Assembly (NCBI GenBank): GCA_016193315.1
Contig: JACPSJ010000006.1
Location: 1 to 63,041, forward strand
Length of the DNA: 63,041 nt
Direction of reading: 5' to 3'
From: Candidatus Kerfeldbacteria bacterium
Lineage (GTDB): Bacteria; Patescibacteriota; Patescibacteriia; SBBC01; CAIJZX01
In this document: positions 1 through 23,557 of the stretch, in pieces
Position numbering within the stretch: position 1 is the first letter of the stretch
Layout of the letters: every line of letters starts with the position of its first letter
Translations under genes and position numbers: made by a program
Notes under the pieces: generated by a model
The model's input: only the letters and a program-made list of their open reading frames with translations
Database searches by the model: none
Told to the model about the DNA's origin: nothing

Positions 1-400
1 AGTGAAGCCAGCTTGTCCGATTGCAGAACCAGCGCGATTTCCATCCGCGCCTAGCTGACCTTTGTGAACGCCTCCGTTACCATTTGGGAGGCAACCGCCC
101 CAGTTAAACTACCCACCAGACACTGTTCCCAGCACCAGTCACTACGTTCCGATTGAGCATCGAACCGCAGAGAGTGGTGCTCGGTTAGCCAACTCGATCA
201 GCGAGAGTGGTATTTCATATTGCGACTCCTCCCCAACCAGGATCGGGGGCTCAAAGTCTCCCACCTATGCTCAGCACGCAAACCGAGCGGGCAATGTCAA
301 GTTATAGTAAAGCTTCACGGGGTCTTTTCGTCTACCTGTGGGTAACGAGCATCTTTACTCGTCCTGTAATTTCGCCGAGTCCCTCGTTGAGAGAGTCGTC

Positions 401-453
<53 letters not shown>

Positions 454-1327
454 CACTGTGTTCTGGGCGAGACAACCTACGGTTTCCTCGTCCCACGCCA
501 CTCTTTCCCTCTCTTGAGTCGCCACCTCCATCCTCGCGCAAAGCAAGTTTGACGCTCGGCTGTTCGGTGCTCGACCTATCTTTTCTTTGTGCGGCGCTCG
601 CTATGGTTCGACTTCGTCGCGCTTAGCGCGACTTCGCTCACCACAGATCGCTCGCGCCGCCGGGATTGGTGACTGCTGCATATTACTATGCAGATCAGAC
701 TATATCTTCAACCTTGCATTCAGAAAAACTGATGGGGCGGCGGCAGACAAGCTTCGTTGTCGTCGCCCCGTACTGCAAGGTGCTCGGGTTGTAGTCGTTG
801 GGGGAATTAGTAGCGATGTGTATCGATGACAGAAGTTCCTCTGAACCCACGAATGAGTTCTATGCGTTCATATCCGTAGTTCATGGTCTTCTTCATCTTT
901 TCTTCGCGGAACCACCGTTTCGCTTCTTCATCTGAGTTCATCATTCGGTTCTCTTCAAGAATTTTACTAGGAACCGATGGATCTACTGGGTGGCGATAAT
1001 ATGCCACCACATCATAGAGTGGCATTTTATGCCTCCTCTGATTAATTCCCTGCGAATCGTCTCCATGTGGAGGGTTTTTCGCATATCTCCGAGTGTTTTA
1101 GGACCATTCACGAATTACTTCGTGGCGAGGCAGCGTATCCTGAGTCCCGCGGCTTGCGGGACGAAGGATCTCTTTTCATTCCGAGGCATTAATTCGGAAT
1201 GACTGCACTGTTTTCGGTAGAATGTTTACCACTTCACTACAACAGTCCTAGTCCTTCGCCCGATCACGTCCCCTCCTTTTCTAAGGAGGGGTGGCCCGCC
1301 GCATGGCGGGACGGGGTGGTCGAGCAA
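454..1327 (-). mobile_element. Group I-type intron (874 nt) inserted after U1931 (E. coli numbering) of the 23S rRNA
   Basis: The conserved block GGTCCTAAGGT|AGCGAAATTCC is split. The 5' exon ends in T (U, as needed for the P1 U-G pair) at 1328, and the last intron nucleotide is G (complement of C454), as expected for omega-G. L1931 is a known group I intron site in bacterial 23S genes. The interior has GC-rich hairpins (for example 1262-1322) and an AT-richer ORF. Confidence 0.7.
807..1025 (-). CDS. Intron-encoded small protein (72 aa), function unknown; no LAGLIDADG, GIY-YIG or HNH motif seen
   Basis: ORF track ORF. A strong Shine-Dalgarno (SD) sequence, GAGGAGG, lies 6 nt upstream of the ATG (reverse complement of 1026-1045). 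The ORF sits in the AT-richer centre of the intron and has a balanced, charged composition. Confidence 0.55.
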   Translation of the reverse strand: MPLYDVVAYYRHPVDPSVPSKILEENRMMNSDEEAKRWFREEKMKKTMNYGYERIELIRGFRGTSVIDTHRY

Positions 1328-1501
1328 ACCTTAGGACCGTTATAGTTACGGCCGGCGTTCATCAGCGCTTCAGATCAAGGCTTGCACCTCTCCCCTTAAC
1401 GTTCTGACACTGGCCAGGCATCAGCCCCTATACATCAGCTTACGCTTTCGCAGGGACCTGTGTTTTTGGTAAACAGTCGCTTGACGTCATTTATTGCAGC
1501 C

Positions 1502-1604
1502 GCGCTCCGCGCGGTAGATGCAAGATTTAAGTTAGAAGATTTAAGTTCGGATTCTTCAATCCTTAATCCTAAATCTTACTACTTACATCCACTGTGCGAA
1601 GCAC
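1502..1604 (-). repeat. 23S hairpin insertion module H1 (clamp GCGCTCCGCGC...GTGCGAAGCAC, AAGATTTAAG/CCTTAATCC arms)
   Basis: About 103-nt imperfect hairpin inside the 23S gene, absent from canonical 23S. It is near-identical to the copy at 1801-1903. Confidence 0.85.
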
Positions 1605-1800
1605 GGCAGGCCATATACCGAAGGTACGGCCACTGTTTTGCCGAGTTCCTAAACGAGGGTTCTCTCGTACGCCTTAGCAGATTTGCTGCCCACCCACCTG
1701 TGTCGGTTTACGGTACGGAGACGTCGTGACCTAACGGAATGACTTTTCTTGGCTCCCACCTCGTCCATATTGGCTTGCCCTTGCGGGTTCGCCGGCGGCT

Positions 1801-1903
1801 GCGCTCCGCGCAGCAGATGCAAGATTTAAGTTAGAAGATTTAAGTTCGGATTCTTCAATCCTTAATCCTAAATCTTACTACTTACATCCACTGTGCGAAG
1901 CAC
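1801..1903 (-). repeat. 23S hairpin insertion module H2, near-identical copy of H1 at a different 23S position
   Basis: Differs from 1502-1607 at only 2 positions (GCGGTAGATGC versus GCAGCAGATGC). The two copies are separated by 196 nt of genuine 23S sequence, including the AAACCGACACAGGTGG block. Confidence 0.85.
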
Positions 1904-2192
1904 GGCCACGCACATAACCAAAGTACGCATGGATCTGGTAGAAACGTCATCACTCCGATAATCACGCCGTCGGGCCGGAATATTAACCGGCTGTCCATCA
2001 GCTACGCCTTTCGGCCTCGCCTTAGGCCCGCCTCACCCTGGGTCGATTTGCGTTGCCCAGGAAACCTTAGGTTTACGGCGGACGGGGTTTTCACCCGTCG
2101 TTGTGCTACTTATACCTACATTCTCACTTCGGTGCGCTCCACGGTCGCTCGCGCTCCCGCTTCGGCGCACACCGAACGCTCCGCTACCACCA

Positions 2193-2357
2193 GCGCTACG
2201 CGCTGGAAATCCCAAATTCCAATTTCCAAATCCCAAGGAAAAGTCCAATTATTGAAACCCCGAGATCCTAACGCCTCGTTTTGGACATTGGAATTTCGGT
2301 CATTAGAATTTCCTTGTTTTTTGGTGCTTGGTACTTGGAATTTCCAGTGCGTAGCAC
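2193..2357 (-). repeat. 23S hairpin insertion module H3 (clamp GCGCTACGCGC...GTGCGTAGCAC, CCAAAT-type low-complexity arms)
   Basis: Arms CTGGAAATCCCAAATTCCAATTTCCAAATCCCAAGG and ...GGTACTTGGAATTTCCAG are mutually complementary. The clamp is the same as in H5. Confidence 0.8.
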
Positions 2358-2443
2358 TGGTCCTCAGCTTCGGTACGGCACTTAAGTCCCGATACATTTT
2401 CGGCGCCCCCGGGCTCGACCAGTGAGCTGTTACGCTTTCTTTA

Positions 2444-2474
<31 letters not shown>

Positions 2475-3037
2475 TTGTTTGAGCCCCGAGACTGCCTTTG
2501 ATACACTGAGTGCCGATTTTGGGACCTTAGCTGGAGATCTGGGTTCTTCCCCTCACGTCCAATGGAGCTTAGCCCCCATGGACTGACTGCCGGACTGTTG
2601 GACCGCGGCATTCGGAGTTTGGTTGGAACGACTAGGCTTGCGCCACGCCGTCCCATTCAGTGCTCTACCTCCGCGGTTGATCATCCGACGCTAGCCCTAA
2701 AGCTATTTCGCGGAGAACCAGCTATCGCCGAGTTCGATTGGAATTTCTCCTCTACCCACAACTCATCCCAGAGCGTTGCACGACTCACGGGTTCGGACCT
2801 CCACGGCGTTTTACCGCCGCTTCATCCTGGTCATGGGTAGCTCACCCGGCTTCGGGTCTACTCCGGCCCACGGGCTCAGGCGTGAGCGGCGCGACCGACC
2901 AAAGGTCAGTCATCCGCTCACACAAGAGCAGTCGCCACTGAAGGCTCGCTTTCACTACGACTCCGGCCTACTCGGCCTTAGTCTACGTGGGACGCAGTAA
3001 CTCGTAGGTTCATTCTTCAATAGGCACGCCACCACCC

Positions 3038-3129
3038 GTGCTCCGCACGTGAAAATCCCAAAGTACAAATACCAAATTCCAAAATTGGGATTTGGAAATT
3101 GGTGCTTGGAATTTCCTTGTGCGAAGCAC
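3038..3129 (-). repeat. 23S hairpin insertion module H4 (clamp GTGCTCCGCAC...GTGCGAAGCAC, CCAAAT-type arms)
   Basis: GAAAATCCCAAAGTACAAATACCAAATTCCAAAATTGGGATTTGGAAATTGGTGCTTGGAATTTCC forms a hairpin bounded by the clamp. Confidence 0.75.
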
Positions 3130-3191
3130 AAGGCTATGACTGCTTGTAAGCATATGGTTTCAGATACTATTTCATTCCCCTCACCGGGGTG

Positions 3192-3228
<37 letters not shown>

Positions 3229-3403
3229 ATCACCAATGATATTTAGCCTTGGAAGTCTAGTCCTCCCGGCTTCCCACAGGATTTCACGAGTCCCGTGGTA
3301 CTTGAGGACGATAACCAGTAAAGCTTTTGAGGGCCCATTTCGCCTACCGGGCTATCACCGTCTGTGGCTGGCCGTTCCAGGCCGATTCGACTATGGACTG
3401 GTC

Positions 3404-3495
3404 CCACCCTACCCCCCGACCCTCTCCCCTTGATCCCCGCTTCCCCCGATCAAGTCGGGGGCGGGGAAGGGGAGGGGGAGAAAGGGGGTGGGGTA
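3404..3495 (-). repeat. GC-rich hairpin expansion in the 23S (poly-C / poly-G arms)
   Basis: CCACCCTACCCCCCGACCCTCTCCCCT...CCCCGCTTCCCCCGATCAAGTCGGGGGCGGGG...AGGGGAGGGGGAGAAAGGGGGTGGGGTA is self-complementary and has no canonical 23S counterpart. Confidence 0.55.
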
Positions 3496-3724
3496 AAACA
3501 TGCGCTCTACTCCTAAAGTCACCGCGTATAGCTCGTCCTCGATAAACTCGGACTCGCACGCGGTCGCGTGTCCCGCGAAGCGGGACTAGACGCGACAAGC
3601 TTTAGACGTTACCATCTCGCAACACCATCATTGCGTGCGGGCTTGTGACCCTTGCTCCCTTGCGGAAGCAGCAATAAAGGTTTAGGCTCTTCCCGTTTCG
3701 CTCGCCACTACTAAGGGAATATCC

Positions 3725-3896
3725 GCGCTACGCGCTGGAAGCTCCAAATATCCAAATTCCAAATCCCAAACAAATCTCAAATTCCAATTCCCAAATCCCA
3801 AACGTCAATCATGAACGTTTCGAACTTTGGATTTTGGTCATTCGATATTGCTTGGTGCTTGGAAATTTGGTGCTTGGGATTTCCAGTGCGTAGCAC
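3725..3896 (-). repeat. 23S hairpin insertion module H5 (clamp GCGCTACGCGC...GTGCGTAGCAC, CCAAAT-type arms)
   Basis: CTGGAAGCTCCAAATATCCAAATTCCAAATCCCAAAC ... TTGGTGCTTGGAAATTTGGTGCTTGGGATTTCCAG; the clamp is identical to H3. Confidence 0.8.
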
Positions 3897-4140
3897 GGCT
3901 TGTTTTCTTTTCCTCTGGCTACTAAGATGTTTCAATTCGCCAGGTGCACTTCGCGCGCCCTATAGATTCAGGCACGGATTCCAAGACATTTCTGTCCTGG
4001 AGGGTTTCCCCATTCGGACATCCCCGGATCAAAGGTTGGTTGCCACCTCCCCGAAGCTTATCGCAGGCTCCTACGTCCTTCATCGTTCATTGGTGTCAAG
4101 GCATCCACCATACGCCCTTGTGTTCCGACGAAGAGTCGGA

Positions 4141-6696
4141 AGACGAGAGTATTGTGTCCGGCACCACCACTGATGCCGGTCACGACCAGAACCATCAACG
4201 AACGTTGACGGCTGGTTTTGATGCTTGTTTCCTACGTTGCTTATTCAGTTGTCAAATAGCCGGATAGCGGAAGACGGAGTTCAGTCGTCAGTGTTCGGAG
4301 CCCAGAGGTCAGATTGATCTGACTTCTGATTTTCTTATTTCCGACACCTGTTTTCTGACGTCTGACTGCCGATGGTTGGATCAACACCACTGGAATCATC
4401 ACGAGGGATCGTGATGGAACCACTAATGTGGATGAAAGGACGAAGAGATTCCGTCCGAGCGGGGCCTCGAAAGAGCCTTTGGCAGGGGCGCCCCCGCCGC
4501 AGAGTGCAGTCGAGCGCCCCAACTCGGAGCGGAAGTGGCCGAGGGCGCAACCGGTTCCACCATTTCCTCGCTAGGAAGATGAGAGGATTGGCATGCGCCG
4601 CTCGGCAAGCGTTGCTCCAGGGAGCGGAGCGTCGTAAAGAATCCTTGACATCCACGGAACCTTTGGGAAGGCCCAGGAGGAAACTTCACGAGCGCTCCGT
4701 CCTGGAGACGAAAGCGGGTGCCAAGCGCGTCGCGTCTCACTGCCGAGTGGAACGATACCCAGCAGCGCCCGACGTGTCGGCACCCGCCAGGGGTGATAGA
4801 AAGACCAGGATCAACCGCACTGGGAGGGTCACGACAAATGTCGTGGCCGAATCAGTGTTGTTGCAGAAGGTGCAGGTTGGCGCCCTGGGCGGAGCGTCGT
4901 GTGCCCCTCGCCGGATTGGCGATCCCTTGCTTATCACACGAACGCTCCTTCCCCGGAGCTTTAGAAATGGGCGCTACGCTGCCGGGCGCGGGTGCCACGT
5001 GGTCGCGGCCACGCCAGGGTGAGCCCAGCCCTCACAGTCTTAGCCCAACCCTGCAGCAGGTGCGCCCAAGTTGTTAGAAAGATCAACGACACTGGAAGAG
5101 TCACGACGGGGTCATGACCAAATCAGTGGAGCTGAGAAAAGTACAGCTGAGATGCTCCGAAAGCGGAGTACCGTAGCGTGGAAGAGAAGGCTGCAACCCG
5201 TCTTCCCACGTTCGGCACCCCGCCCCGGAGCTACGATATGGGCGTACGCATATGGGTCTCGAGCAAGGACCTCGGCTTCGTCTTTTCGGGACTCGCCTAC
5301 AGTGGTCGTCGCTGTCGTCCCGACGGACGCCCAGATTGATGCGCCGAGCAGTGCGCCCAGAAACGGTAGGAATTGGGCGTTCTTTCCAGGACCCGGACGC
5401 GGTTGGGCCCGGCGCATTGATTGGCGGGGGCCTGTGCCGATGATGGGAGGACGTGCCAAGGCCACCCCAAATGGACTCTCATCGGTCAGTGCCCCAAAAG
5501 GTTGAAGGATCGAAGTCATTTCACGGACATGGAATGTCTTCGAGCCTTAACCCCTCTGTCCGGCCCGGCCGGACATCTCCCCTTTATAAGGGGAGAGCTG
5601 CGAAGAAAGGTGGGCCGAGCGCACTACCGACCCTGGCCCCTGAAGCCGCCCCATTGGGGGCGGGAGGATCGAGTACGTGCGCTCGGCACTAGAGTATTGG
5701 GCGAACCGCCGATTAGTTCCTCTTTTTCTTTTCCACTTCGTTATAGCGCAGGAGGACCGAAATGGCTGGATACTCATCGTTGGAATCGCCCAACTCGTTA
5801 CGTTTCAATGTACAGATAACTCCATCAGGGGGCCGGGCGCGTGAGCACTAAGCCCTCGAGTGTCCGGTACGGGCAGCGCGATCTCCCCGGACAGTGATCG
5901 AGGCCGTTACCCGGTCCCCTTCCCCGCGTGGCGCGGAGTCAGCGAGCCTGAAACATTCGGCACCATCCAATTCAAGCGAGGGAGGGGACCTCACAACTCC
6001 TCAAGAATCAGACCGCGCCGATCATGGAAAGCGGTGGATCCTGCACATCGAGTTTTCCGCTTCTGTTGCCGCTTCGCTCAACTCGAGCGCAGGATCCCCC
6101 AAAGGGTCGGGGATCTCCGATGATGGAGGGAGGCCCTTCGGGCTGAGACGCATCTCATTCTCCGCTCAGCAATCACGAGACCCCCGTTACAGCGTCGGTG
6201 GTTGTCAACCGACGAACGGAGACGCCATGGTGGATGCCCCAACGACTCCGCAGTCGTTAAGTCCATCACGGTCGCCAACACCGACGCCAACTACTGGCGG
6301 GACGCTACCCATATTTTCGTGCTCCCCCTCCCAGAACAGCACGACTATACTGAGCAGCGTCCCACGTCTACTTTGAAGTCAAGGATCGAATCCGAGCCGT
6401 CAGTAATGGTGATTCAGATACGATGCTCGATGGTGATGGGAGGGGCGGATTGGGGAAACCCCAAACCACTCGCTACGCTCGGGTTCGAAGTGCTCCCCAC
6501 CCGTGCGGAGGCGGTCCCGCACTACTCGCTTTGCTCGAGTGCGGGATGCAACCAGTTTTTGTTAAAAGGGCTAAGGAGTTGCAAAAACCGCCTCGTCGGC
6601 GGCTCGGTGCAAAAGAAGGCTCTGGCGGTCTTCCTAGCCGACGACGGTCTCCTTCACGGCTGTCTTTCGCATACGAGCCAAAGTCATTGATTAAGC
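4141..6696 (-). ncRNA. About 2.5-kb non-coding, GC-rich, hairpin-dense region between a strong promoter and the 23S 5' end (giant rRNA leader or unknown large structured RNA)
   Basis: ORFs occur only as overlapping, Arg/Pro/Gly-rich ORFs on both strands. Many GNRA-capped or GC hairpins are present. There is a colinear 272-nt tandem module (4809 versus 5081). No 16S, tRNA, RNase P, tmRNA or SRP signature was found. The strand assignment rests only on the promoter at 6704-6732 and co-orientation with the 23S gene. Confidence 0.45.
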
Positions 6697-6703
6697 AGGG
6701 CTT

Positions 6704-6732
6704 AGTATACATTCTTGAAACTCGCCTGTCAA
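6704..6732 (-). promoter_or_regulatory. Sigma70-type promoter reading leftwards toward the non-coding region and the 23S gene
   Basis: Reverse complement reads TTGACA (6732-6727), a 17-nt spacer, then TATACT (6709-6704). The same box pair is seen at 25991-26018. Confidence 0.6.
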
Positions 6733-6805
6733 GGAGGGAAAAGGGCGAAACGCGTGGATAACTACAAAAAACTTGACACGAAGTGGAGTTTCTGTCGTGC
6801 TGTTG

Positions 6806-6832
6806 CGAAAAAGCCTCACTCCTGGTGAGGCT
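6806..6832 (-). terminator. Rho-independent terminator downstream of the GH1 gene
   Basis: 8-bp stem AGCCTCAC/GTGAGGCT with a 5-nt loop. It is followed on the minus strand by a T-run (plus-strand AAAAA at 6808-6812). Confidence 0.6.
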
Positions 6833-7022
6833 CTCTGAGAATTCTCGCGGGCCGCAGCCTGGAAACCGACTTCCTAGGTGGGGCCCGGGCTCCGGTTCAT
6901 GGTCGCCACGTAGTACGGTACTGAGAGCGCGCAGATCACTACCTCCGCTAATGCGACCCACCAAGGTAAACCAAGTTCCTGTTTGGACTTCACGGATCCC
7001 CCTTGCTGGACGATGCCCGTTG

Positions 7023-8264
7023 TTACGCCGTTGGTGACGATGAAGATGACCTGGAGCGACTGTGTTGCACAATGAGCTGTCGATAGGCGTGGGCGCTGGG
7101 ACGGATTGTACGCTTCAGCGTGTGATAGTCAACTTCGACTAGGCCGAACCGGGGCGTAAAACCTTCGCGCCATTCGAAATTGTCGAGCAAGGACCAATAG
7201 CAGTAGCCACGGACGTCGAGGCCGTGTCGTATGGCGTGGTCGACCTGCGCCACGTGGTCGCGGATGAAGGCCGCCCGCAAATGGTCATCGGCGTCAGCCA
7301 CGCCGTTCTCGGAAATGATAATCGGCAGCTGATACGGGCGGACCGATTCGAGAACCAGACCGAGTCCGGTCGGGTAGATTTCCCAGCCGAGGTCAGATTG
7401 CGGTGCGGCTGGCGGCGTTTGGGGGGCGAACAGTTTTGTCGGGCCGACCCAGCGCCAACGGAGCGGATGGTGAAAGTAGTAGTTGATGCCGAGGAAGTCC
7501 TGGGTGTCGTAGGTTTGGTTGAGCCACCAGCGGTTGTGCCAGAAGTCGGCCCACGCACGCAGTCCTTGATCCAGCAGGTGCCCGGGCCGAGCGGCGGCGA
7601 AATCATTAAGGTTGTTGGCGACGCCCACTTTCGCCGCTGGCCAGCGGCGATGGATGATTTGGTACGCCAGGCGGTGGGCGGTGACTAAGTTTCGGATGGC
7701 TTGCCAGGCTGACAAGTAGTTTTTTTTCTGCGGCGGCCAGTAGGCGCTGATGTAACCGTGGGAGGTGTAAACTGTCGGCTCGTTGAGCGTCACCCAATGG
7801 GTGATCAGATGGCCGAGTTGATCGACGATCGCCTGAACGTAACGCCCGAAGTCGTCGATCGTCCGGCGATTCGTCCAACCGCCTTGGTTGCGGATCCAAA
7901 TCGGGTTGGTGAAGTGCCAAAGCGTGACGAGAGGCTCGAGGCCTAGACGATGGAGCTCGACCAGGACTTGCCGGTAGTGATCAATCGCCGCCAGGTCAAA
8001 CCGGCCCGGCCGCGGCTCAATCCGACTCCATTCGATGGAGAAGCGGTGGGCGTTGTGCCCGAGTTCTTTGGCTAAGGCAAAATCCTCGCGGAACCGTTCG
8101 TAGTGTCCACAGGCTCGACCGGATTGTTCCCTGCTCTTCACCAGGCCGAGTTTTTCCCACTCGGTCCAGTCGTTATGGTTGTTACCCTCAACCTGGTGAG
8201 CCGACGTCGCGGCGCCCCAGAGGAAGTTGGTTGGGAATCTACTAGTACGCGAATCTACGAACAT
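7023..8264 (-). CDS. Glycoside hydrolase family 1 (beta-glucosidase-like)
   Basis: 413-aa ORF with the N-terminal FLWGAATSAHQVEG and both GH1 catalytic motifs, TLNEP (acid/base) and ISENG (nucleophile). Confidence 0.9.
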   Translation of the reverse strand: MFVDSRTSRFPTNFLWGAATSAHQVEGNNHNDWTEWEKLGLVKSREQSGRACGHYERFREDFALAKELGHNAHRFSIEWSRIEPRPGRFDLAAIDHYRQVLVELHRLGLEPLVTLWHFTNPIWIRNQGGWTNRRTIDDFGRYVQAIVDQLGHLITHWVTLNEPTVYTSHGYISAYWPPQKKNYLSAWQAIRNLVTAHRLAYQIIHRRWPAAKVGVANNLNDFAAARPGHLLDQGLRAWADFWHNRWWLNQTYDTQDFLGINYYFHHPLRWRWVGPTKLFAPQTPPAAPQSDLGWEIYPTGLGLVLESVRPYQLPIIISENGVADADDHLRAAFIRDHVAQVDHAIRHGLDVRGYCYWSLLDNFEWREGFTPRFGLVEVDYHTLKRTIRPSAHAYRQLIVQHSRSRSSSSSPTA

Positions 8265-9968: not shown

Positions 9969-11009
9969 ATGACAAAGGTCATGGTGACCGGTGGTGCAGG
10001 ATTCATTGGCTCGAACTACATCCGTCATGCCCTCCGATCTCACCCGGACTGGGAGATTTGGAATCTCGACAAGCTGACCTACGCCGGCAACCTGGCCAAT
10101 CTGGAAGATGTGGCTCAGGACCCGCGGTATCATTTTGTACGCGGTGATATTGCTAATGCCAAGACGGTCGACTCGGTAACGAATAACGGATTCGACACCA
10201 TTATCAATTTCGCGGCCGAGACCCATGTTGACCGCTCGATCCATAGCGGCAATGAGTTTTTGCATACTAATGTTCTTGGCACGAATGTTCTGCTTGAAGC
10301 CGCCCGCCACCATAAGGTCAAGACTTTTGTCCATATCTCGACTGATGAGGTCTATGGTGACCTACCGGCTGGTGAATTTGCCAAAGAATCTGATTCGCTC
10401 AAGCCCTCGAGCCCTTATGCGGCTTCCAAAGCGGCAGCCGACTTATTGGTTCTAGCCCATGTCCGGACCTATGGCTTGCCAGCCATGATCACCCGCGGCA
10501 CGAATAATTACGGTCCGTATCAGCACCCAGAAAAAATGTTGCCGCTGTTCGTCACTAATTTATTGCCGGGCAAGAAAGTTCCGGTCTACGGCGATGGTCA
10601 GCAGGTTCGCGATTGGCTGCACGTCGATGATCATTGTCGGGCGATTGATATTGTTTTGGAGAAAGGAAACGTCGGGGAGATCTATAATATCGGTGCAAAC
10701 CACCAACCCGAATGGAGAAACCTAGAAGTCACAAAACTTATTCTCGATGAACTGGGCATGGATGAATCGATGATTGAACACGTCACCGACCGGCCTGGGC
10801 ATGATCGCCGGTATGCGGTTGAGGTGAGGAAGATTAAAGATTTAGGATGGAAGATTCAGGTGCCGGCGGAGGAAGGGTTGCGCGGGACCGTGCGGTGGTA
10901 TCGGGATCATCAAGACTGGTGGGCTACCACTCCCAGGGCTGCGGCCAGCCTCCGTCTTAAGCCCCCGCTGTCGCTGGGGGGAGGGGACCGCCGACCGAGA
11001 CCCCAATGA
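9969..11009 (+). CDS. rfbB: dTDP-glucose 4,6-dehydratase
   Basis: MTKVMVTGGAGFIGSNY Rossmann start, plus STDEVYG and YAASKAA motifs. I moved the start to the ATG at 9969; the ORF track start at 9921 adds 16 non-conserved residues. Confidence 0.9.
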   Translation: MTKVMVTGGAGFIGSNYIRHALRSHPDWEIWNLDKLTYAGNLANLEDVAQDPRYHFVRGDIANAKTVDSVTNNGFDTIINFAAETHVDRSIHSGNEFLHTNVLGTNVLLEAARHHKVKTFVHISTDEVYGDLPAGEFAKESDSLKPSSPYAASKAAADLLVLAHVRTYGLPAMITRGTNNYGPYQHPEKMLPLFVTNLLPGKKVPVYGDGQQVRDWLHVDDHCRAIDIVLEKGNVGEIYNIGANHQPEWRNLEVTKLILDELGMDESMIEHVTDRPGHDRRYAVEVRKIKDLGWKIQVPAEEGLRGTVRWYRDHQDWWATTPRAAASLRLKPPLSLGGGDRRPRPQ

Positions 11010-11842
11010 AACTCATTGTTACTGGCGCGGCTGGGATGCTGGGGAAGGCTATGCTGGACGCCTGGTTCGACCATGAGGTCTTGGGGTTGGACCGGGGCGA
11101 GCTTGACATTACCGATCCGGTCCAGATTCGGCAGACTCTGGCCACGATCAGGCCACAACTACTGATCAACTGCGTTGGATATACTGATGTTGACCGATGC
11201 GAAACGGAAGAGGCGGTTGCAGAACGGGTCAACAGTACCGCTGTCGGTTACCTGGCCAAGACATGTGCCGAACATAAAATAACGCTGGTGCACATCAGCA
11301 CAGACTATGTATTTTCCGGAACCAAGGAGGAAGGTTACGCTGAAGACGATGAACCGGGGCCATCAATCAATGCCTATGGCCTAACCAAGCTTCATGGTGA
11401 AGAATTGTTGCGCCGCCATGCGGCACGGTGGTATCTAGTTCGGACTTCGTGGTTGTATGGATCGGGTGGACGAAATTTCGTCGACACGATTCTCAATCTA
11501 GCCAAGACAAAGTCAGAATTGACTGTGGTAAACGACCAACACGGAAAACCGACCTTTACCCGAGACTTGAGCGGATTCATCAAGCAGCTCGTGCTTGATC
11601 GCGCGCCATATGGGATTTACCACGGCGTCAACGAGCTGGCCTCGACCTGGTATGAATTCGCCACCGAGATTCTCCGGCAGGCGCAATTGTCCACGCCGAT
11701 CAAGCCAATCAAGAGCGAGGCTCTGCCGCGTCCGGCCAAGCGACCGGAATGGTCGGTGCTTCTCAATACCAAACGACCACCACTTCGTTCTTGGCAGGAC
11801 GCGCTGCGTGACTACCTGGCCGAGCTGGGCTATTCTGGTTGA
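11006..11842 (+). CDS. rfbD: dTDP-4-dehydrorhamnose reductase
   Basis: MKLIVTGAAGMLG, HISTDYVF and YGLTKLHGE motifs. The start overlaps the rfbB stop in an ATGA overlap. Confidence 0.85.
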   Translation: MKLIVTGAAGMLGKAMLDAWFDHEVLGLDRGELDITDPVQIRQTLATIRPQLLINCVGYTDVDRCETEEAVAERVNSTAVGYLAKTCAEHKITLVHISTDYVFSGTKEEGYAEDDEPGPSINAYGLTKLHGEELLRRHAARWYLVRTSWLYGSGGRNFVDTILNLAKTKSELTVVNDQHGKPTFTRDLSGFIKQLVLDRAPYGIYHGVNELASTWYEFATEILRQAQLSTPIKPIKSEALPRPAKRPEWSVLLNTKRPPLRSWQDALRDYLAELGYSG

Positions 11843-16709: not shown

Positions 16710-18140
16710 GTCAGTAAATGAGCGAAAATCGCGCGCGCTCGACCACCCGATTTTCGCTTCGTAGCCGAGTTTTCTCCCTTTCAAAAGAAAGTTCGAGCCG
16801 ATATTTTTCAGAAATGCACGAAGTTCGGCTGGCTCGCCGCGGTTAGCCAGGATTTTGGCTTGTTTATTGCGTAAAAGAAACTCTTTCATCGGTTCGAGCC
16901 AAAAACTGCCTTTCTGCCGAAGTTCATCAATTCGCTGTTCTAAAGAAACCCTTTGGCCAAGAAGTTTCTCTTTCTTAGCTTTATACTCGCTGGCTTCAAT
17001 AGCGCCTTCCAAGTGAGAGTCGAGCAGGCGGTCTAGTTTCACGTCCGTGGCCTTTATTTGGTCTCCAAGCGACATTACCAGCTCACCAGACTGCCTTGCT
17101 TCCTGTTCTCGATCTTCTTCTAGCTTCGCCAACATCTTGTCTGTCCAATCATCGGGAAGTGCTAGGTTTTTGTAGATCGTTTGAATCTGCTCGACTAACG
17201 CTTCTTCTCGCAAGTAGCCTTTTTCAGAACAGAAACCCTTTTTCTTAGTACAGCGATAGTACGTATGTCCTTTCTGAACTTCGGCAGTTATGTAACAACC
17301 GCAGGAGCATTTTATCAGTGCGCCGAACAAATGACTCTTATTGTGTTTCGCTTGAGGTTTACCGCGGCGAGCCATGACCGCTTGGCACTCGTCGAATAAT
17401 CGTTTGGAGATAATTGGTTTGTGCGCCGCTGGGTATAATTCTCCGTTGTAACGAATTAGTCCGGAGTAAAATGGATTGCGGAGTAACTTTTGGACGTTAC
17501 CTATAGCTATCGGACCACCAAAGCGAGTTGTCAGACCTTTTTTGCTGAATAAAATAGCGAGGTCTTGAAAACCATACTCCCCGGTAGCATATAGTTGGAA
17601 CATTTTTCTAATAAGCGGTGCGGTTTTATCATCAACGATAATGGTTTTATTTATCCGATCATTATCGTAACCCAGCGGCGCCCAACCTGGCCAAACTCCG
17701 CGACGAAGTTTTTGTCGCTGACCGCGTTTAATATTTTCGCGGAGATTATCGACGAAGTATTTGGATTGGCCAAAAGCAATCGAGAGCATAAATAATCCTT
17801 GCGGCGTTGGCTCAAACCAAAAGGTCGGAAACTTCATGGCTTTGAGTAATCCGCGATCTACCAAGTGAATTATTCGACCACCATCAACGGAATTGCGTGC
17901 CAAGCGGTCGGGATGCCAAGCGAGTATTCCGTCAGCCTTACCTTTCTCGATTGAATCCAGCATTTCGCCGAACTTCGTTCGGCCCGGTTCCTTGGCGGTT
18001 TTTGCTTCCTGAAAGGAAGCGACGATTTCAAGTTTTTCTTTGGCGGCAAATTCTTTTAATTCAATTAATTGGGCTTCAATACTTAAAACCTGTTGTGAAT
18101 CTTCCTCGGTAGATTTTCTAGCGTAGAGATAATATTTCAT
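16656..18140 (-). CDS. Large serine recombinase (resolvase domain + recombinase domain + zinc-ribbon/coiled-coil region)
   Basis: N-terminal YARKST(E)...QLIEL...ILAWHPDRLARN resolvase catalytic core, CxxC...C pattern and a long coiled-coil. The last 18 codons read through the tRNA-Leu 3' half (16656-16709). Confidence 0.9.
   Translation of the reverse strand: MKYYLYARKSTEEDSQQVLSIEAQLIELKEFAAKEKLEIVASFQEAKTAKEPGRTKFGEMLDSIEKGKADGILAWHPDRLARNSVDGGRIIHLVDRGLLKAMKFPTFWFEPTPQGLFMLSIAFGQSKYFVDNLRENIKRGQRQKLRRGVWPGWAPLGYDNDRINKTIIVDDKTAPLIRKMFQLYATGEYGFQDLAILFSKKGLTTRFGGPIAIGNVQKLLRNPFYSGLIRYNGELYPAAHKPIISKRLFDECQAVMARRGKPQAKHNKSHLFGALIKCSCGCYITAEVQKGHTYYRCTKKKGFCSEKGYLREEALVEQIQTIYKNLALPDDWTDKMLAKLEEDREQEARQSGELVMSLGDQIKATDVKLDRLLDSHLEGAIEASEYKAKKEKLLGQRVSLEQRIDELRQKGSFWLEPMKEFLLRNKQAKILANRGEPAELRAFLKNIGSNFLLKGRKLGYEAKIGWSSARDFRSFTDWCRGEDSNLHLLAETRS
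16704..16781 (+). repeat. Recombination-site copy A (next to the tRNA; lies inside the recombinase 3' coding end)
   Basis: 48-bp core identical to copy C, plus 23-30 bp (TTTCGCTTCGTAGCCGAGTTTTC...) shared in inverted orientation with copy B. The core contains the dyad GCGAAAATCG-N16-CGATTTTCGC. Confidence 0.8.
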
Positions 18141-18153
18141 ATCCTAGGGTTAG

Positions 18154-18428
18154 GAGAGAAAAGCCCGCGTTCGCCCGCGCCCTTAAGGGCGCAAAGGGGG
18201 AAAACTCGGCTACGAAGCGAAAATCGGGTGGTCGGCCGCGGCCGATTTTCGCTCATTTACCGACTGGTGCAGTATATACGCGCAGATTCGAACGGATTTT
18301 GCGGGCGGCGGCTAGCGCCCCTTCGCCCCCGCAGCCGCCGCCCGGGCGCGCCTTTTCAAAAACCGCCAAGCAACCGGTAAAAAATATCGGCTCGAACTTT
18401 CTTTTGGGGCGAACGCGGGCTTTTCTCT
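18154..18428 (-). repeat. Recombination-site copy B: inverted, junction-type (attP-like) copy carrying a relic recombinase C-terminus, enclosed by 22-bp inverted repeats
   Basis: The reverse complement of 18200-18357 equals [left arm of C, 87/87] + [core with 5 substitutions, 4 in the central 8 nt] + [right arm of A]. The plus strand encodes ...KLGYEAKIGWSAAADFRSFTDWCSIYAQIRTDFAGGG* followed by a 13-bp GC hairpin. 18154-18176 and 18407-18428 are inverted repeats. Confidence 0.75.
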
Positions 18429-18491
18429 TCCGTATTCCTATTATGAATATTCCTCAAGTGAATATATGATGATTACTGAATACTGTCAAAT

Positions 18492-18716
18492 ATGCGAAAA
18501 AACATATACTCACCGATTAGCAAGAGAATTGTCCACAAGTTAAAATTGGCTAGAAAACAGGCTGGTTTGGATCAAAAACAGGTGGCAAAACACCTTGGTG
18601 TTACCCAGTCTTTGGTTTCTAAAATTGAATCCGGCCAAGTTCGGCTTGATGTGACACAGCTACTTGAATTAGCTCGACTTTATCAAAAACACGTCACATT
18701 CTTTCTGGAACAATGA
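18492..18716 (+). CDS. XRE-family helix-turn-helix protein, probable R-M controller (C) protein
   Basis: 74 aa with LDQKQVAKHLGVTQSLVSKIESGQ. The stop overlaps the start of the downstream nuclease gene in an ATGA overlap. TGAATA repeats (18444, 18459, 18477), including the palindrome GAATATTC, lie upstream. Confidence 0.8.
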   Translation: MRKNIYSPISKRIVHKLKLARKQAGLDQKQVAKHLGVTQSLVSKIESGQVRLDVTQLLELARLYQKHVTFFLEQ

Positions 18717-20725
18717 ATCCTCAAGTCAGAAAACTAAGAATTCACGGTGACAATATTCTTGAGTGCGAACACGCTCTTGAATTGCTTTCTAGCTCTCTAA
18801 ATAATAAATCCCCAGAAATAAAACTCGTTGCTAGCCCACCATACGCGCCGGAGTACGAGCTTCAAACTGATTCCGGTGGAATTATTAGGGTCAAACTTTT
18901 CCCGGGCTATGGACGCTGGGAGTTTAAACTAGAAAAGTACTTGGTTTCACGAGGGGCGTCGCTACGTGAGGCTACTGATGCCTTGATAACTGAGTTAGTC
19001 TCGGACAAAGATAAGTCTTTTGAAAAACCATTGCTCGCTTTAGAATTCAGCGGGGCATTACCTGCAGGGAACAATGCTTGGCAAAGGAGTGGAAGAGCTC
19101 TAGCACTAGCCGGTAGCCATGTACCTTTTTTATACTTTGCCGAGATCGGTGGCGTTGAACTTGATTCAGCAAGAAGAATCAAAGCGCCACGATTTCCGAA
19201 TCCCCTAGTTCCATTTTCATACTTAGCGGCTGGTCAAGAGGAAGGCACTATCTGTATGCCAATCTATGCACCAAGCCCATCTATTGATCTAAAAAACCTC
19301 GAACTGTTCAAAAAATGTTTTGGTAATATTGACGCATTAGTTCTCACTAGAGCAATTATTCTTGACGATAAAAAGGGCGCTGAATCAGTAACTAAAGTAA
19401 TTCGTGAAAAAGCTAAGGAAGTCGTAAGAATACTAGCTGAACAAAGAAAAAAGAAGGATATTCTTACCCCAATTGAGTGGGTTCAACTATTAGAAAGAAA
19501 AACGGGCCTAGAGAAAGCGAAGTGGCTGATTAATCGCTCCATGAATTGGAGAAAGAAGACTGGCATTAAAGGTCTTACCCCTTCTTTTAAAAAACTGATT
19601 CTGGCTACACAAAAAATTGGTGCTTCGGCGCTTGGATCAGTTGATATGCCCATGTGTATCCTGGACGAGGCAAAAAGGACTGACTTTGCTAAAAAGGTGG
19701 GACTAATCTATAAAAACAAAGTTTCGTCGGATTTTTTGACTTGGTTAGCTCAAAATAATAAGCCACTAGCGATTGTTTGGGTAGCCGGATTCAAGCCAAG
19801 GGGTGATGATTCGCGACCGGATCGAGGTCTAACACCGTTAGTAAGAATGATTTTGGGTCAAGATGAAGTGGATATGCTTACTGTAATTTATGGACCCGCA
19901 AAGCCAAGTACATGGAAAAAACTCCGTGATGATATGTTCTCGCTCTCCCGAGATAACGGATTATGGGAAGCGATACTGCATCTTAGTAATGGCGTTATCG
20001 CAGATAGCCCAACCAATAAGCTAGGAATCGTTGGATTTAAAATACCAAAGAGAGCGTTTGAAGCAAACAATGAACCGCTTGTTGCGGCCCTAGACCTTCC
20101 AGTTTTTGGGGAACACGATATTGATTCTGTAATCCACAGTCTTTTTTCTCTGGCCGAGGAACAGGGAATATTTGAAGCAATGTGCAACCCACCCGGTGGT
20201 GATTGGAGCGGAGTTAATATTTTTGATTTTGAATCAAGAATACGTTATCGATGGACATCATTACCCAGAGTTTCCGGACCGACTACAAAAAGACCAGATC
20301 ATTTAGTGCAATTGAATGCCCTTGACCTATTACTGACGATTGAGTCTAAGGAATCTTCAAGAACGCTAGAAAAAAATATCGGACCAAGACTGATCAAGTA
20401 TGTTAAGACTTTAATTAGTATAGCCCCAAATTCTTTTAGAATTTCACTTGGTGATCCTTGGAGACCCTTTGAAACAGAGTATACAAAAAAGTTTTCTAGC
20501 TACATCTCGGGGGCAGCTATAAAGTACAAAGATGAGAACGATCTACGCGAAACCTTAAAAACCTCGCAAACAGATATAGTATTTGGTGTTGAATTTCTAC
20601 CAAAAGAACAGTCCTATAAAGTGGTCATACATTTGCAGGCCAACAAACAAGGAAGGGCAATTTTCTCAATAATAAAAAAACTATCGCGCCGATTTGGTGG
20701 CGGAGTTTCAGTAGTAGAGCACTAA
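18713..20725 (+). CDS. Putative restriction endonuclease (670 aa) with a C-terminal PD-x14-ExK nuclease motif; Type IIS-like architecture
   Basis: RPDHLVQLNALDLLLTIESK at residues 527-546 (nt about 20291-20350). The gene is translationally coupled to a C protein and converges on two methyltransferase genes. I recognise no other family. Confidence 0.55.
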   Translation: MNPQVRKLRIHGDNILECEHALELLSSSLNNKSPEIKLVASPPYAPEYELQTDSGGIIRVKLFPGYGRWEFKLEKYLVSRGASLREATDALITELVSDKDKSFEKPLLALEFSGALPAGNNAWQRSGRALALAGSHVPFLYFAEIGGVELDSARRIKAPRFPNPLVPFSYLAAGQEEGTICMPIYAPSPSIDLKNLELFKKCFGNIDALVLTRAIILDDKKGAESVTKVIREKAKEVVRILAEQRKKKDILTPIEWVQLLERKTGLEKAKWLINRSMNWRKKTGIKGLTPSFKKLILATQKIGASALGSVDMPMCILDEAKRTDFAKKVGLIYKNKVSSDFLTWLAQNNKPLAIVWVAGFKPRGDDSRPDRGLTPLVRMILGQDEVDMLTVIYGPAKPSTWKKLRDDMFSLSRDNGLWEAILHLSNGVIADSPTNKLGIVGFKIPKRAFEANNEPLVAALDLPVFGEHDIDSVIHSLFSLAEEQGIFEAMCNPPGGDWSGVNIFDFESRIRYRWTSLPRVSGPTTKRPDHLVQLNALDLLLTIESKESSRTLEKNIGPRLIKYVKTLISIAPNSFRISLGDPWRPFETEYTKKFSSYISGAAIKYKDENDLRETLKTSQTDIVFGVEFLPKEQSYKVVIHLQANKQGRAIFSIIKKLSRRFGGGVSVVEH

Positions 20726-21580
20726 CTAATAGTTTAAATAGAGGGATTCTAAGACGGGCTCTATTTTTTTGTCTTGTAGTTTCCTAAACGGTGCGTTTCC
20801 TGACTTCAGGAGCACATGTTTTTTATAAAGCCTTCTTGGAATTGATACTATAAAGGATTTAGTGCCACGTTTTCCATCATAGGACAAAGCAAATTTTATT
20901 TGTTTTTTGTTCAGATTCTCCAAGAATTTAATAAACCTCGAGTAGTCGATGGATTCAATATACCTAGATTTTGTATTGAAGTAGGGTGGGTCTAAGTAAA
21001 CAAAGTCTCCTTCTTTTACGTTTTTAGTGATCACTTCATAATCTCCACTTACAAAATGATAATTAGGTATTTTTTTAGACCACCCCCAAACAACTTTCTT
21101 AAAAGACTTGGGGGAGATACCTTTTCTTGAATGATGGAGCGAATTATTAAACTCGCCGTTTTTATTAAATCTAATTAATCCATTTACACAGGTTCTGGAT
21201 AAAAAAAGTAGGTCGTGAGGGTTTTTAGTCTTATTAAAGTTATCACGAACAGTATAAAAATATTTATACCCTTTCTTTTGTAGAAAATTCCACCTTTTTT
21301 CATACTCAGAAACTACTTCCCCCGGCGTTTTCTGAACGGCTTTCCAAATGTCGATCAGCGGTTTATATAAGTCTCCGCCAATTGCCTTTTTGGGTGTCAG
21401 AAAGCCAAGCACCGAACCACCACCCAAAAATGGTTCATAGTAAGTATTTACGTGACTCGGAAAGTAGCTAACTATTTGTTTAGCTTGAGATCGCTTACTA
21501 CCACTCCATTTTATGAGAGGTGGGAGGATCATATTAGAAAGAAGTTTGGACTTTACAATTCTCGAGTCTTTTTTTTGCAA
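20726..21580 (-). CDS. D12-class (Dam-like) N6-adenine DNA methyltransferase
   Basis: PLIKWSGSKR, EPFLGGGS (motif I) and VYLDPPY (motif IV). The likely true start is the ATG at 21532, 1 nt after the upstream stop, giving 268 aa. Confidence 0.85.
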   Translation of the reverse strand: MQKKDSRIVKSKLLSNMILPPLIKWSGSKRSQAKQIVSYFPSHVNTYYEPFLGGGSVLGFLTPKKAIGGDLYKPLIDIWKAVQKTPGEVVSEYEKRWNFLQKKGYKYFYTVRDNFNKTKNPHDLLFLSRTCVNGLIRFNKNGEFNNSLHHSRKGISPKSFKKVVWGWSKKIPNYHFVSGDYEVITKNVKEGDFVYLDPPYFNTKSRYIESIDYSRFIKFLENLNKKQIKFALSYDGKRGTKSFIVSIPRRLYKKHVLLKSGNAPFRKLQDKKIEPVLESLYLNY

Positions 21581-22988: not shown

Positions 22989-23003
22989 AGAATAGGGGAT
23001 ATA

Positions 23004-23063
23004 TTGACTTTCGATTTATTTTCGATTACATTACTATTGTACCGGTTAAACCGGATCCGTCAA
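23004..23063. promoter_or_regulatory. Overlapping divergent promoters with candidate operators between the LexA-methyltransferase gene and the rightward genes
   Basis: Minus strand: TTGACG (23063-23058), a 16-nt spacer, TACAAT (23041-23036). The spacer holds the palindrome CCGGTT-A-AACCGG (23042-23054). Plus strand: TTGACT (23004-23009), a 17-nt spacer, TACATT (23027-23032). That spacer holds the direct repeat TTTCGATT x2. Confidence 0.5.
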
Positions 23064-23524: not shown

Positions 23525-23557
23525 AAAAGTTACCATCATACAACCTGCGTAAACTCC

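Follow-up and report, generated by a model that had tools for sequence, protein, structure and literature searches.

A 2.5-kb modular region upstream of an unlinked 23S rRNA gene in a Kerfeldbacteria-like bacterium is most likely an expanded rRNA leader

In bacteria, the leader of an rRNA operon normally measures a few hundred nucleotides, and the boxA element of the Escherichia coli rrn operons reads UGCUCUUUAACAA. Nut-like sites (boxB-boxA-boxC) occur in rrn operons both in the leader and in the spacer, each combining a hairpin with a linear boxA a few nucleotides further on (PMC8632103). Patescibacteria often have unlinked rRNA genes (bioRxiv 10.1101/705046), and the unlinked 23S-5S precursor of Helicobacter pylori, a stand-alone operon with its own promoter, has a 374-nt leader that ends in an RNase III processing stem (PMC6582327). 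In attenuators of the trpL, pheL, ilvL and pyrL type, a short ORF stands just upstream of an intrinsic terminator, and its 3' end overlaps a segment complementary to the 5' arm of that terminator. Here we analysed a locus of a Kerfeldbacteria-like CPR bacterium that recalls each of these systems in part, and whose region upstream of 23S is most likely an extraordinarily long, modular rRNA leader, predicted to be transcribed.

The window (the whole stretch of DNA analysed, 63,041 nt) contains on its minus strand, at 1-4131, the 5' part of a 23S rRNA gene with large insertions; model position 1 falls at 4131, and 4131 nt are needed to span model positions 1-2374. The upstream GH1 gene lies on the same strand (7023-8264) and, as the original prediction had claimed, has its own intrinsic terminator, a hairpin at 6833-6808 that marks the boundary of the unit. 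Downstream of it, a near-consensus promoter facing the 23S gene (minus strand, 6732-6704) combines a -35 TTGACA (6732-6727), a 17-nt spacer and a -10 TATACT (6709-6704); this site, likewise part of that prediction, is the sole promoter-like one in a consensus scan of 4000-7100, which found no promoter for an antisense RNA. With the promoter and the 23S start on the same strand and no gene between them, positions 6732-4132 (minus strand) probably represent the promoter and 5' leader (external transcribed spacer, ETS) of an unlinked 23S-5S rRNA operon, whose leader transcript would start at this promoter. The arrangement would be that of H. pylori, with a leader of about 2.45-2.57 kb (2451 nt when compared with relatives), roughly 6.5-7 times longer than the 374 nt of that species.

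Consistently with the claim that this stretch holds no credible ORF, six-frame translations of 4132-6703 (stops masked) gave zero Pfam matches at E<=1, the listed ORFs overlap one another on both strands, and tblastx against the spacers of relatives returned noise only. The 16S, tRNA and tmRNA signatures reported as missing were also missing in our scans, 16S anywhere in the 63-kb window and tRNA and tmRNA in 3900-7100. An Rfam/Infernal scan, proposed earlier as a check, retrieved rRNA alone at gathering score over the whole window and, at E<=10 in 3300-7100, no family besides rRNA, plus microRNA-model noise in a 23S insertion.

Fifteen related genomes share this layout, and GH1-to-23S synteny without 16S is seen in relatives (in L082 the order is leader, 23S, then 5S); the leaders measure 575-1600 nt compared with 2451 nt here, a range of about four-fold. 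The order common to these relatives runs from the promoter and block A through a boxB-like hairpin, boxA and the processing stem to 23S. Conservation, which had been named as a further check, was found in the form of short islands (promoter, mini-ORF, terminator-like hairpin, boxA-like site, the M2 and HM hairpins, and processing stem); the bulk of the leader sequence is not conserved even among relatives, and alignment is limited to the islands. Block A (promoter, mini-ORF and terminator-like hairpin T1) lies upstream of 23S in 16 genomes, even where other genes separate it from GH1, at a variable distance and with no gene between it and 23S. Most relatives carry a TTGAC[AG]-17-TAnnnT site at an equivalent position (-128 to -147 relative to the terminator-like hairpin), and no positionally conserved internal promoter was found in the leaders. 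The GH1 protein of the window is a singleton whose best relative is 72% identical, and genome and metagenome scans for closer relatives reached at most 67% identity. Another candidate relative with an HM match, L195, was discarded: a real gene lies downstream of its GH1, and the HM match is a chance one.

In block A the promoter is followed by a mini-ORF (minus strand, 6672-6634; ATG CGA AAG ACA GCC GTG AAG GAG ACC GTC GTC GGC TAG, encoding MRKTAVKETVVG), with an upstream in-frame ATG at 6687. In 16/16 genomes the mini-ORF has an invariant ATG, five variable codons free of indels and the C-terminal pattern [K/Q/M]-E-x-[V/I/F]-x-G, then a stop after 0-1 further codon; its length is 12-13 codons, and the stop itself varies among genomes (TAG, TAA or TGA). 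Within the variable codons, stops number 0/80 in frame, compared with 2 and 5 in the other frames. No Shine-Dalgarno sequence precedes the mini-ORF, in a genome that rarely shows one (10/32 ORFs). The last three codons are fixed at their third positions, so the conservation need not reflect selection on the peptide. The mini-ORF, the terminator-like hairpin (6605-6583) and the boxA-like elements had been overlooked by the original prediction.

The last mini-ORF codons form segment S1 (UCGUCGGCU; minus strand, 6644-6636), a proposed antiterminator strand that pairs with AGCCGCCGA (S3, 6604-6596) in the 5' arm of T1. T1 (minus strand, 6605-6583) consists of GAGCCGCC-GACGA-GGCGG followed by UUUUU; neither its stem nor its U-run varies in any relative, and it is the RNAalifold consensus structure. 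Across GTDB genomes, the exact T1 pattern is essentially confined to this clade, where each genome has it once, upstream of 23S; two extra matches (L163, L165) look like chance. Eight base pairs of the S1:S3 pairing are invariant in all genomes, and the central mismatch position of S1 varies (U/C/A) between neighbours that are invariant, third codon positions included. Because S1 and S3 are invariant, covariation support comes from one flanking pair (GC 6, AU 2, GU 2, UA 1), whose score was attained by 16/500 shuffles. The S1:S3 conformer is 0-11 kcal/mol worse than the terminator fold, the two energies being close in several species and 6-11 kcal/mol apart in others. Most species have the terminator fold as their minimum free energy (MFE) structure, the exceptions being L001 and L164, where the antiterminator-type fold is the MFE.

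The layout of an attenuator, an ORF (6672-6634) followed by a hairpin with five U residues (6605-6583), is conserved in 16 genomes and is shared with trpL-type systems, as is the overlap between the ORF 3' end and a segment complementary to the terminator 5' arm. Here, however, the operon is an rRNA operon and not a biosynthetic one, there is no run of regulatory codons, and the design has three segments in which translation would favour termination. T1 could act as an attenuator, as a boxB-like hairpin of the first nut-like site, or as both; it may simply be that boxB hairpin and not a regulated terminator. The mini-ORF/terminator unit is the most novel part of the leader and may gate rRNA synthesis.

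Taking the E. coli element as the boxA consensus, we found linear motifs resembling it at two places, 6571-6555 and 4259-4240 (minus strand). T1 precedes the first (boxA1; GCCCUUUUAACAAAAAC; GCCCUUUUAACAA) by about 12-20 nt. BoxA1 is similar to the E. coli rrn boxA. Its aligned counterpart in L003 is AGCUCUUUUCAACAA, L001 and L193 have similar sequences, and it is recognisable in some relatives, not in every one. The second, boxA2 (CUAUUUGACAACUGAAUAAG; UAUUUGACAACUGAAUAA), belongs to a spacer-type nut-like site and aligns with UUGACAACUGAAUAA in eight relatives and with CUUUAACAAUUUAAUAA in L082, the latter matching the E. coli boxA across 13 nt (CUUUAACAAUUUA). A boxB-like hairpin, HM, is found 5' of boxA2 in the relatives, where it is present in a single copy fixed beside boxA and ends 7-8 nt before boxA2, the L082 version being E. 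coli-like. In the window, the HM copy nearest 23S (HM1) is displaced 120 nt from boxA2, and HM3 abuts a boxA-like motif. A perfect 11-bp hairpin (CAGAAGUCAGA-UCAA-UCUGACCUCUG; minus strand, 4328-4303) stands between HM1 and boxA2, and a comparable hairpin directly precedes boxA2 in L082 and L196.

The leader ends in a predicted 5' strand of the 23S processing stem (minus strand, 4196-4132; GAUGGUUCUGGUCGUG ... ACUCUCGUC), whose GUGGUUCYGG block all relatives retain. The homologue of this strand in L082 pairs with the 3' trailer of 23S, as judged from obvious stem segments only, RNAduplex on long flanks having over-extended the pairing; by homology, the same stem would form in the window, which ends inside 23S and lacks its 3' end. 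The pair of nut-like sites in the leader corresponds to those of classical operons, which have one in the leader of 16S and another in the spacer between 16S and 23S; in both cases one site comes after the promoter and one about 110-180 nt before 23S, followed by the 23S processing stem. Unlike the E. coli operons, no 16S lies between the sites, the unit is present in three copies, NusB/NusE binding is putative, and the boxB-like HM is sequence-conserved and three-tiered.

The modular part of the leader is defined by GATCAACNNCACTGG, which occurs exactly three times in the 63-kb window (4379, 4809 and 5081; chance expectation 0.07, with 0/100 shuffles reaching three), as the original prediction had noted for its composite motif. 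Each copy belongs to an HM hairpin, a conserved three-tier boxB-like structure whose stems covary through compensatory changes. Module 3, the 5'-most in the RNA (minus strand, 5352-5081), comprises an M2 block (5249-5223) and HM copy 3 (5134-5081); the boxA-like UCUUUCUAACAACUU that follows (5082-5068) lies almost wholly outside it, in the first bases of module 2. Module 2 (minus strand, 5080-4809) has M2 as GCUCC-GGGGAA-GGAGC+GUUCGUG (4979-4951 region) and HM copy 2 (4863-4809), and is followed by GGUCUUUCUAUCA (4806-4794). Module 1, nearest 23S (minus strand, 4808-4379), carries a degenerate M2 (4541-4523) and HM copy 1 (4433-4379). M2 is common to the window, L003, L004, L168 and L196.

The two units 4809-5080 and 5081-5352 had been described as a tandem 272-nt module. 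They do have in common a 60-nt hairpin and a 29-nt block at equal offset (4951-4979 and 5223-5249; 5/300 shuffles), but their remainder is no more similar than shuffles and Tandem Repeats Finder reported nothing. Moreover, the GTGCGCCCA copies proposed as the unit ends are 291 nt apart and do not fit a 272-nt period. The extreme length of the leader would combine three copies of an ancestral M2-HM(-boxA) unit with about 1.2 kb of lineage-specific, hairpin-forming sequence. A scan of GTDB genomes with the HM pattern gave 24 matches, about the chance number, none of them a hairpin or near 23S.

Towards the promoter, a hairpin, H2 (minus strand, 6547-6514; AUCCCGCAC...GUGCGGGAC), is conserved in L001, L002, L081, L082, L193, L199 and L201. 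Between H2 and the modules lies the distal leader (minus strand, 6513-5353), a GC-rich, lineage-specific chain of local hairpins without a Pfam or Rfam match and without a BLAST match to the leaders of relatives or to the rest of the window; it could be neutral filler. The idea that it is an array of decayed HM units was rejected, since an HM covariance model run with filters off found no extra degenerate copies in 5140-6510. Within it, GGCAUCCACCAU (minus strand, 6238-6227) is a perfect 12-nt complement of AUGGUGGAUGCC in 23S (4111-4100). Such a length is reached in 1/200 shuffles in the window, and the complement is not conserved in relatives; a conserved chaperone pairing of the leader with the 23S 5' end was therefore discarded, and the match may be due to chance.

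Since perfect hairpins turned out not to separate the leader from coding sequence, structure was assessed by folding z-scores. The leader has 10 perfect short hairpins compared with 3.9 expected, in line with its description as full of them, but coding sequence has a similar excess (8 compared with 3.4). All four hairpins singled out earlier as examples are present at the coordinates given for them; the GNRA-like loops attributed to some of them lie on the plus strand, antisense to the transcript, and in the RNA read UUU and CUUU. The GC-richness, described as visible, is weaker than that (59.0% in the leader, 55.1% in the whole window). The description of the sequence as structured held: on the minus strand, the mean z-score of 120-nt windows was -1.91 for the leader, compared with -1.95 for 23S and -0.35 for neighbouring coding sequence, so that the predicted folding of the leader exceeds shuffles by as much as that of the adjacent rRNA. 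Over 5150-6500, slightly wider than the distal leader, the mean was -1.74. Folding of the sense strand was more negative than that of the antisense strand in 10/10 leaders tested. The MFE structure of the distal leader is a chain of 60-100-nt hairpin domains, and no long-range architecture closes the predicted fold.

An rRNA leader, extraordinarily long and modular, was one of the two readings originally proposed, and it fits all the comparative evidence (15 relatives, no conserved internal promoter, sense-strand bias). The other, a novel, large structured RNA that stands on its own, comparable to OLE, GOLLD or ROOL and co-transcribed with the rRNA or processed from its precursor, would agree with the size, GC content, strong local structure and absent ORFs of the region. 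No covariance model of OLE, GOLLD, HEARO, ROOL, raiA or others in Rfam 15 matched at gathering score or at E<=10, however, and beyond short islands, which are themselves leader-type elements, neither sequence nor length (varying about four-fold) is conserved; the fold is a string of local hairpins, and the repeat, being a duplicated hairpin of the antitermination type, is no domain of a large fold, which makes this reading very improbable. A DNA-level role of the repeats, for example as a replication origin or an array of protein-binding sites, might be suspected from a GATC-containing motif repeated in a non-coding region beside an rRNA operon, and from a cumulative GC skew minimum near 4000. 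This minimum is explained by the G-rich sense strand of the rRNA, the GC-rich region has neither an AT-rich unwinding element nor dnaA in its vicinity, and the motif is a hairpin with covarying stems that occurs once in relatives, fixed beside boxA; we consider such a role extremely improbable.

Two other explanations accept part of the anatomy and deny that the whole is a leader. Block A could be an independent small-RNA or small-protein gene, with 23S transcribed from its own, nearer promoter and most of the 2.5 kb untranscribed or weakly transcribed. T1 resembles a complete intrinsic terminator, most species have it as their MFE fold, conservation is lacking in the distal region, and CPR promoters are poorly known, such that a consensus scan can miss one. 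Against this, block A stays with 23S and not with GH1 in 16 genomes despite the variable distance, a boxA-like site follows T1, the leaders lack a positionally conserved internal promoter, and the sense-strand bias in structure extends along the whole leader in 10/10 genomes; an independent block A is unlikely. Still less probable, in our estimate, is that the region, or the distal 1.2 kb of it, derives from a decayed gene, an intron, a mobile element or a 16S relic; it would then be debris without RNA-level function, left between two nut-like sites when an ancestral 16S-23S operon lost its 16S. The two boxA sites do lie where the leader and spacer sites of a classical operon would be (PMC8632103), the 23S gene itself has large insertions, and the unconserved sequence and four-fold length variation would suit debris. 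Six-frame Pfam searches were nevertheless empty, no SSU, intron or other Rfam match appeared at E<=10, no repeat copies exist elsewhere in the window, and neutral debris would not predict z-scores equal to those of rRNA, with the stronger values on the sense strand.

For the rRNA leader, which remains our preferred reading, we infer from the observed anatomy, conservation and structural propensity how transcription would start, how T1 would be attenuated or read through, how Nus factors would load and how 2.5 kb would be co-transcribed. Transcription would begin at the strong conserved promoter, and its first ~115 nt would carry the 12-codon mini-ORF, whose last codons could pair with the 5' arm of the invariant terminator-like hairpin. 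On a mini-ORF without a ribosome, the S1 pairing would form first, the terminator would be blocked and RNA polymerase would continue; a ribosome on the last codons or the stop would free the arm, the terminator would form and transcription would abort, 23S synthesis being thereby tied to translational capacity. Polymerase that had passed T1 would reach the boxA-like site and later the HM boxB-like hairpin with the boxA just before 23S; both nut-like sites would presumably load a Nus-factor antitermination/RNA-chaperone complex, so that polymerase could traverse 2.4 kb of hairpins. The final ~100 nt would provide the 5' strand of the processing stem, cut to release pre-23S. That the mini-ORF and terminator form a ribosome-sensing attenuator of rRNA transcription, through which translation by free ribosomes would stop 23S-5S synthesis, is a tentative proposal that we hold to be possible and less likely than not to be correct; a full-text literature search turned up no leader-peptide attenuator described for an rRNA operon.

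At about 2.5 kb, the leader is unusual for a lineage whose genomes are known to be streamlined, and so are its partial construction by multiplication of an antitermination-type unit and the persistence of rRNA-like structure without sequence conservation. The same lineage tolerates large extra sequence in rRNA transcription units (literature on CPR insertions is cited in bioRxiv 10.1101/705046); those insertions lie inside rRNA genes and often encode homing endonucleases, whereas the present leader is outside the gene and holds no ORF. By analogy only, it recalls the eukaryotic 5' ETS, a kilobase-scale, fast-evolving, hairpin-rich spacer before rRNA with short conserved islands, although the spacer described here is bacterial, precedes the large-subunit rRNA and gives no sign of snoRNP- or processome-type scaffolding. 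Bacterial external transcribed spacers would thus be able to expand much as in eukaryotes, which raises the question of their role where ribosome-biogenesis factors are few. If the attenuator were real, it would link translational capacity and large-subunit rRNA output in reduced-genome CPR bacteria through a cis-encoded feedback, and the kilobase-scale hairpin leader behind it would be a protected, Nus-dependent delay or chaperone segment. If functional, the mini-ORF/terminator unit of at least 16 Kerfeldbacteria-like genomes would allow translation-coupled feedback on rRNA synthesis to be tested directly, with a bearing on how these bacteria may balance unlinked 16S and 23S and control growth rate without classical regulators.

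The 23S rRNA gene on the minus strand is bacterial (position 1 of the Rfam model falls at 4131 in a local alignment), and the stretch separating it from the same-strand promoter at 6732-6704 is predicted to be the 5′ leader of an unlinked 23S-5S operon, exceptionally expanded. Consistently with the original prediction, this promoter (TTGACA-17-TATACT) is the sole sigma-70-like one in 4000-7100, the GH1 glycosidase gene upstream of the leader (7023-8264, minus strand; Pfam E = 1e-89) has its own terminator (hairpin at 6833-6808, minus strand), no tRNA or tmRNA was found between promoter and 23S, and a 16S gene was found nowhere in the window with Rfam. GC content was 59.0% in the leader vs 55.1% in the window, in which a low-GC island (18001-24000, about 41% vs about 55%) may be horizontally acquired. 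The 23S gene is itself enlarged, occupying 4131 nt for model positions 1-2374 only, with its 3′ end outside the window; its insertions (minus strand) comprise two in domain I (about 3950-3390; 176 and 237 nt), one of ~85 nt near 3099-3015 and one of 65 nt near 2900. At about 3400-3500 the inserted sequence is a long GC-rich hairpin that attracts spurious microRNA-model matches.

The closest relatives of the GH1 protein (63-72% identity, none closer in the collections searched) came from MAGs of Kerfeldbacteria and other Patescibacteria, in which unlinked rRNA genes are common (bioRxiv 10.1101/705046). In the related genomes the same neighbourhood runs into 23S without a nearby 16S, and locus L082 shows the order leader, 23S, 5S. 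Several loci (L003 and L168 among them) carry the MAG titles "uncultured Gammaproteobacteria", "Saccharibacteria" or "Bdellovibrionales" on a Kerfeldbacteria-type locus, probably automatic mislabels. Spacer-vs-spacer BLAST revealed similarity in islands only. The first, block A (promoter, mini-ORF and terminator-like hairpin at the leader start), keeps company with 23S even where other genes part it from GH1. In L004 (5579-11700) and L005 (3084-5200) the several kb between GH1 and block A hold internally repeated, paralogous segments; L005 gap positions 177-512, for instance, are matched by L004 gap positions 2054-2389 and again by 4120-4452. They probably represent a gene family that has undergone duplication.

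In 16 genomes (the window and 15 relatives), a TTGAC[AG]-17-TAnnnT promoter is followed by a G-poor 30-45-nt stretch and an invariant ATG, which begins a 12-13 codon ORF whose next five codons vary without indels and whose end reads [K/Q/M]-E-x-[V/I/F]-x-G, with TAG, TAA or TGA directly or one codon later. Its window version, MRKTAVKETVVG plus stop, lies at 6672-6634 (minus strand); the variable codons had 0/80 stops in frame vs 2 and 5 when read in the two alternative frames. The mini-ORF has no Shine-Dalgarno sequence, although of 32 long ORF starts in the window (start codons assigned mechanically) only about 10 have such a motif, and SD-led initiation seems to matter little in this genome. 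About 30 nt downstream of the ORF, RNAalifold predicted as consensus structure an invariant terminator-like hairpin (GCCGCC-N5-GGCGG plus U4-5; 6605-6583, minus strand). Across 185,579 GTDB species scanned, the exact pattern was essentially limited to the Kerfeldbacteria-like clade, where each genome has a single copy, upstream of 23S; matches in L163 and L165 look like chance. The final mini-ORF codons, UCG-N-CGGCU, are invariant, third positions included, and complement the 5′ arm of this hairpin (AGCCGCCGA), with eight invariant pairs flanking one mismatch that is precisely the single varying nucleotide (U/C/A, encoding V/A/D). Covariation was thin, with one covarying flanking pair (GC 6, AU 2, GU 2, UA 1, unpaired 3) whose score was reached by 16/500 shuffles. 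Most species had the terminator fold as their predicted MFE, with the alternative conformer 0-11 kcal/mol worse; in L001 and L164 the predicted MFE was instead an antiterminator-type fold. The hairpin is followed by a boxA-like element, GCCCUUUUAACAA (6571-6555, minus strand; AGCUCUUUUCAACAA in L003), and a conserved hairpin, H2 (6547-6514, minus strand). L193 has two H2-type hairpins in succession (3600-3740; CCCGCAC...GCGGG).

Nearer the 23S gene, the repeated motif GATCAACNNCACTGG was found, as predicted, at 4379, 4809 and 5081, its only occurrences in 63 kb (0.07 expected by chance). On the RNA strand it forms the 3′ half of a predicted three-tier hairpin, HM (CAAC..CACUG, internal loop, apical stem, CAGUG..GUUGAUC), with folding z-scores of -3.9 to -6.4 and a 15-bp consensus (13 copies, ten genomes) showing compensatory change at five pairs; in L081 the apical stem is wholly different. 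Most relatives have a single HM, ending 7-8 nt upstream of UUGACAACUGAAUAA, which aligns with CUUUAACAAUUUAAUAA of L082, an E. coli-type boxA; this position makes HM the putative boxB-like hairpin in a nut-like site of the spacer type. Leader elements are duplicated in relatives too: L081 carries HM twice (about 10895-10965 and about 11100-11170), one copy adjoining boxA and the other about 170 nt further upstream. Downstream of boxA, a conserved GUGGUUCYGG segment is the predicted processing stem strand, since the L082 copy pairs with the 23S 3′ trailer. L003, L004, L168, L196 and every window unit also have a small hairpin, M2 (GCUCC-N6-GGAGC, then GUUCGUG), at 120-230 nt upstream of HM. Classical operons have nut-like sites in both the 16S leader and the 16S-23S spacer (PMC8632103); judged from its motifs, the leader has two predicted sites, as in a classical operon minus 16S.

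The proposed 272-nt tandem module held in part: two units (4809-5080 and 5081-5352) have HM in common, together with a 29-nt M2 block at a matching offset (5/300 shuffles), while their remainder is no more alike than shuffles. The third, at 4379-4808, measures 430 nt, and Tandem Repeats Finder reported no repeat. Directly after HM3 stands UCUUUCUAACAACUU and after HM2 GGUCUUUCUAUCA; whole boxB-boxA units appear to be duplicated. An HM covariance model found no further copies in the window. We interpret the three units as an old triplication, now largely decayed, of an ancestral M2-HM(-boxA) unit. From the block A hairpin to 23S the leader spans 2451 nt, compared with about 575-1600 nt in the 15 relatives and 374 nt for the Helicobacter pylori counterpart (PMC6582327). 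Two extra modules (about 700 nt) and about 1.2 kb (5353-6513), for which neither the relatives nor the rest of the window yielded a homologue, supply the excess.

The leader is indeed structured (mean folding z-score -1.91 on the minus and -1.36 on the plus strand, 120-nt windows vs dinucleotide shuffles), to a degree indistinguishable from 23S (-1.95/-1.43) and far above that of the adjoining coding sequence (-0.35/-0.04). Counts of short perfect hairpins failed to separate it from coding sequence, and the supposed GNRA-like loops sit on the plus strand and therefore read UUU and CUUU in the RNA. The predicted whole-leader fold is a chain of local 60-100-nt hairpin domains without a global closing architecture. 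In 10/10 leaders the sense strand folded better against shuffles than the antisense (mean -1.75 vs -1.08), which suggests that hairpin content is maintained despite unconserved sequence. Three ~95-100-nt predicted domains (5792-5698, 5333-5239, 5068-4968; minus strand) have UGGGCGN/NCGCCCA closing pairs, the RNA-strand form of the GTGCGCCCA motif noted originally, and hint that another module, more decayed, lies upstream of the third. At 6227-6238 the leader carries GGCAUCCACCAU, whose 12 nt are perfectly complementary to a conserved sequence at the 5′ end of 23S, AUGGUGGAUGCC (4100-4111), about 2.1 kb downstream; this length was reached by only 1/200 shuffles. Relatives do not conserve the pairing, which may be chance or lineage-specific.

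The original prediction offered a 23S leader or a novel large structured RNA. The layout fits the former, whereas a free-standing large ncRNA is opposed by absent conservation and the lack of any Rfam match. The region may instead combine an independent small RNA with a separate 23S promoter, but no conserved internal promoter was found. For a decayed gene, an intron or a 16S relic, no homology appeared between promoter and 23S (Rfam, E<=10; six-frame Pfam, E<=1); as had been claimed, there is no credible gene, the listed ORFs overlapping on both strands. Against a DNA-site array stands the covariation of the HM stems, and the GC skew that a replication origin might explain is accounted for by rRNA.

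Within the predicted 23S leader, the mini-ORF and terminator are laid out like a ribosome-mediated attenuator, and we infer that they may act as one: a ribosome halted at the final mini-ORF codons would free the terminator arm. The hairpin could also be no more than the boxB belonging to the first nut-like site. No precedent for a unit of this kind on an rRNA operon emerged from a full-text literature search, and this putative pair is the most novel element of the leader.
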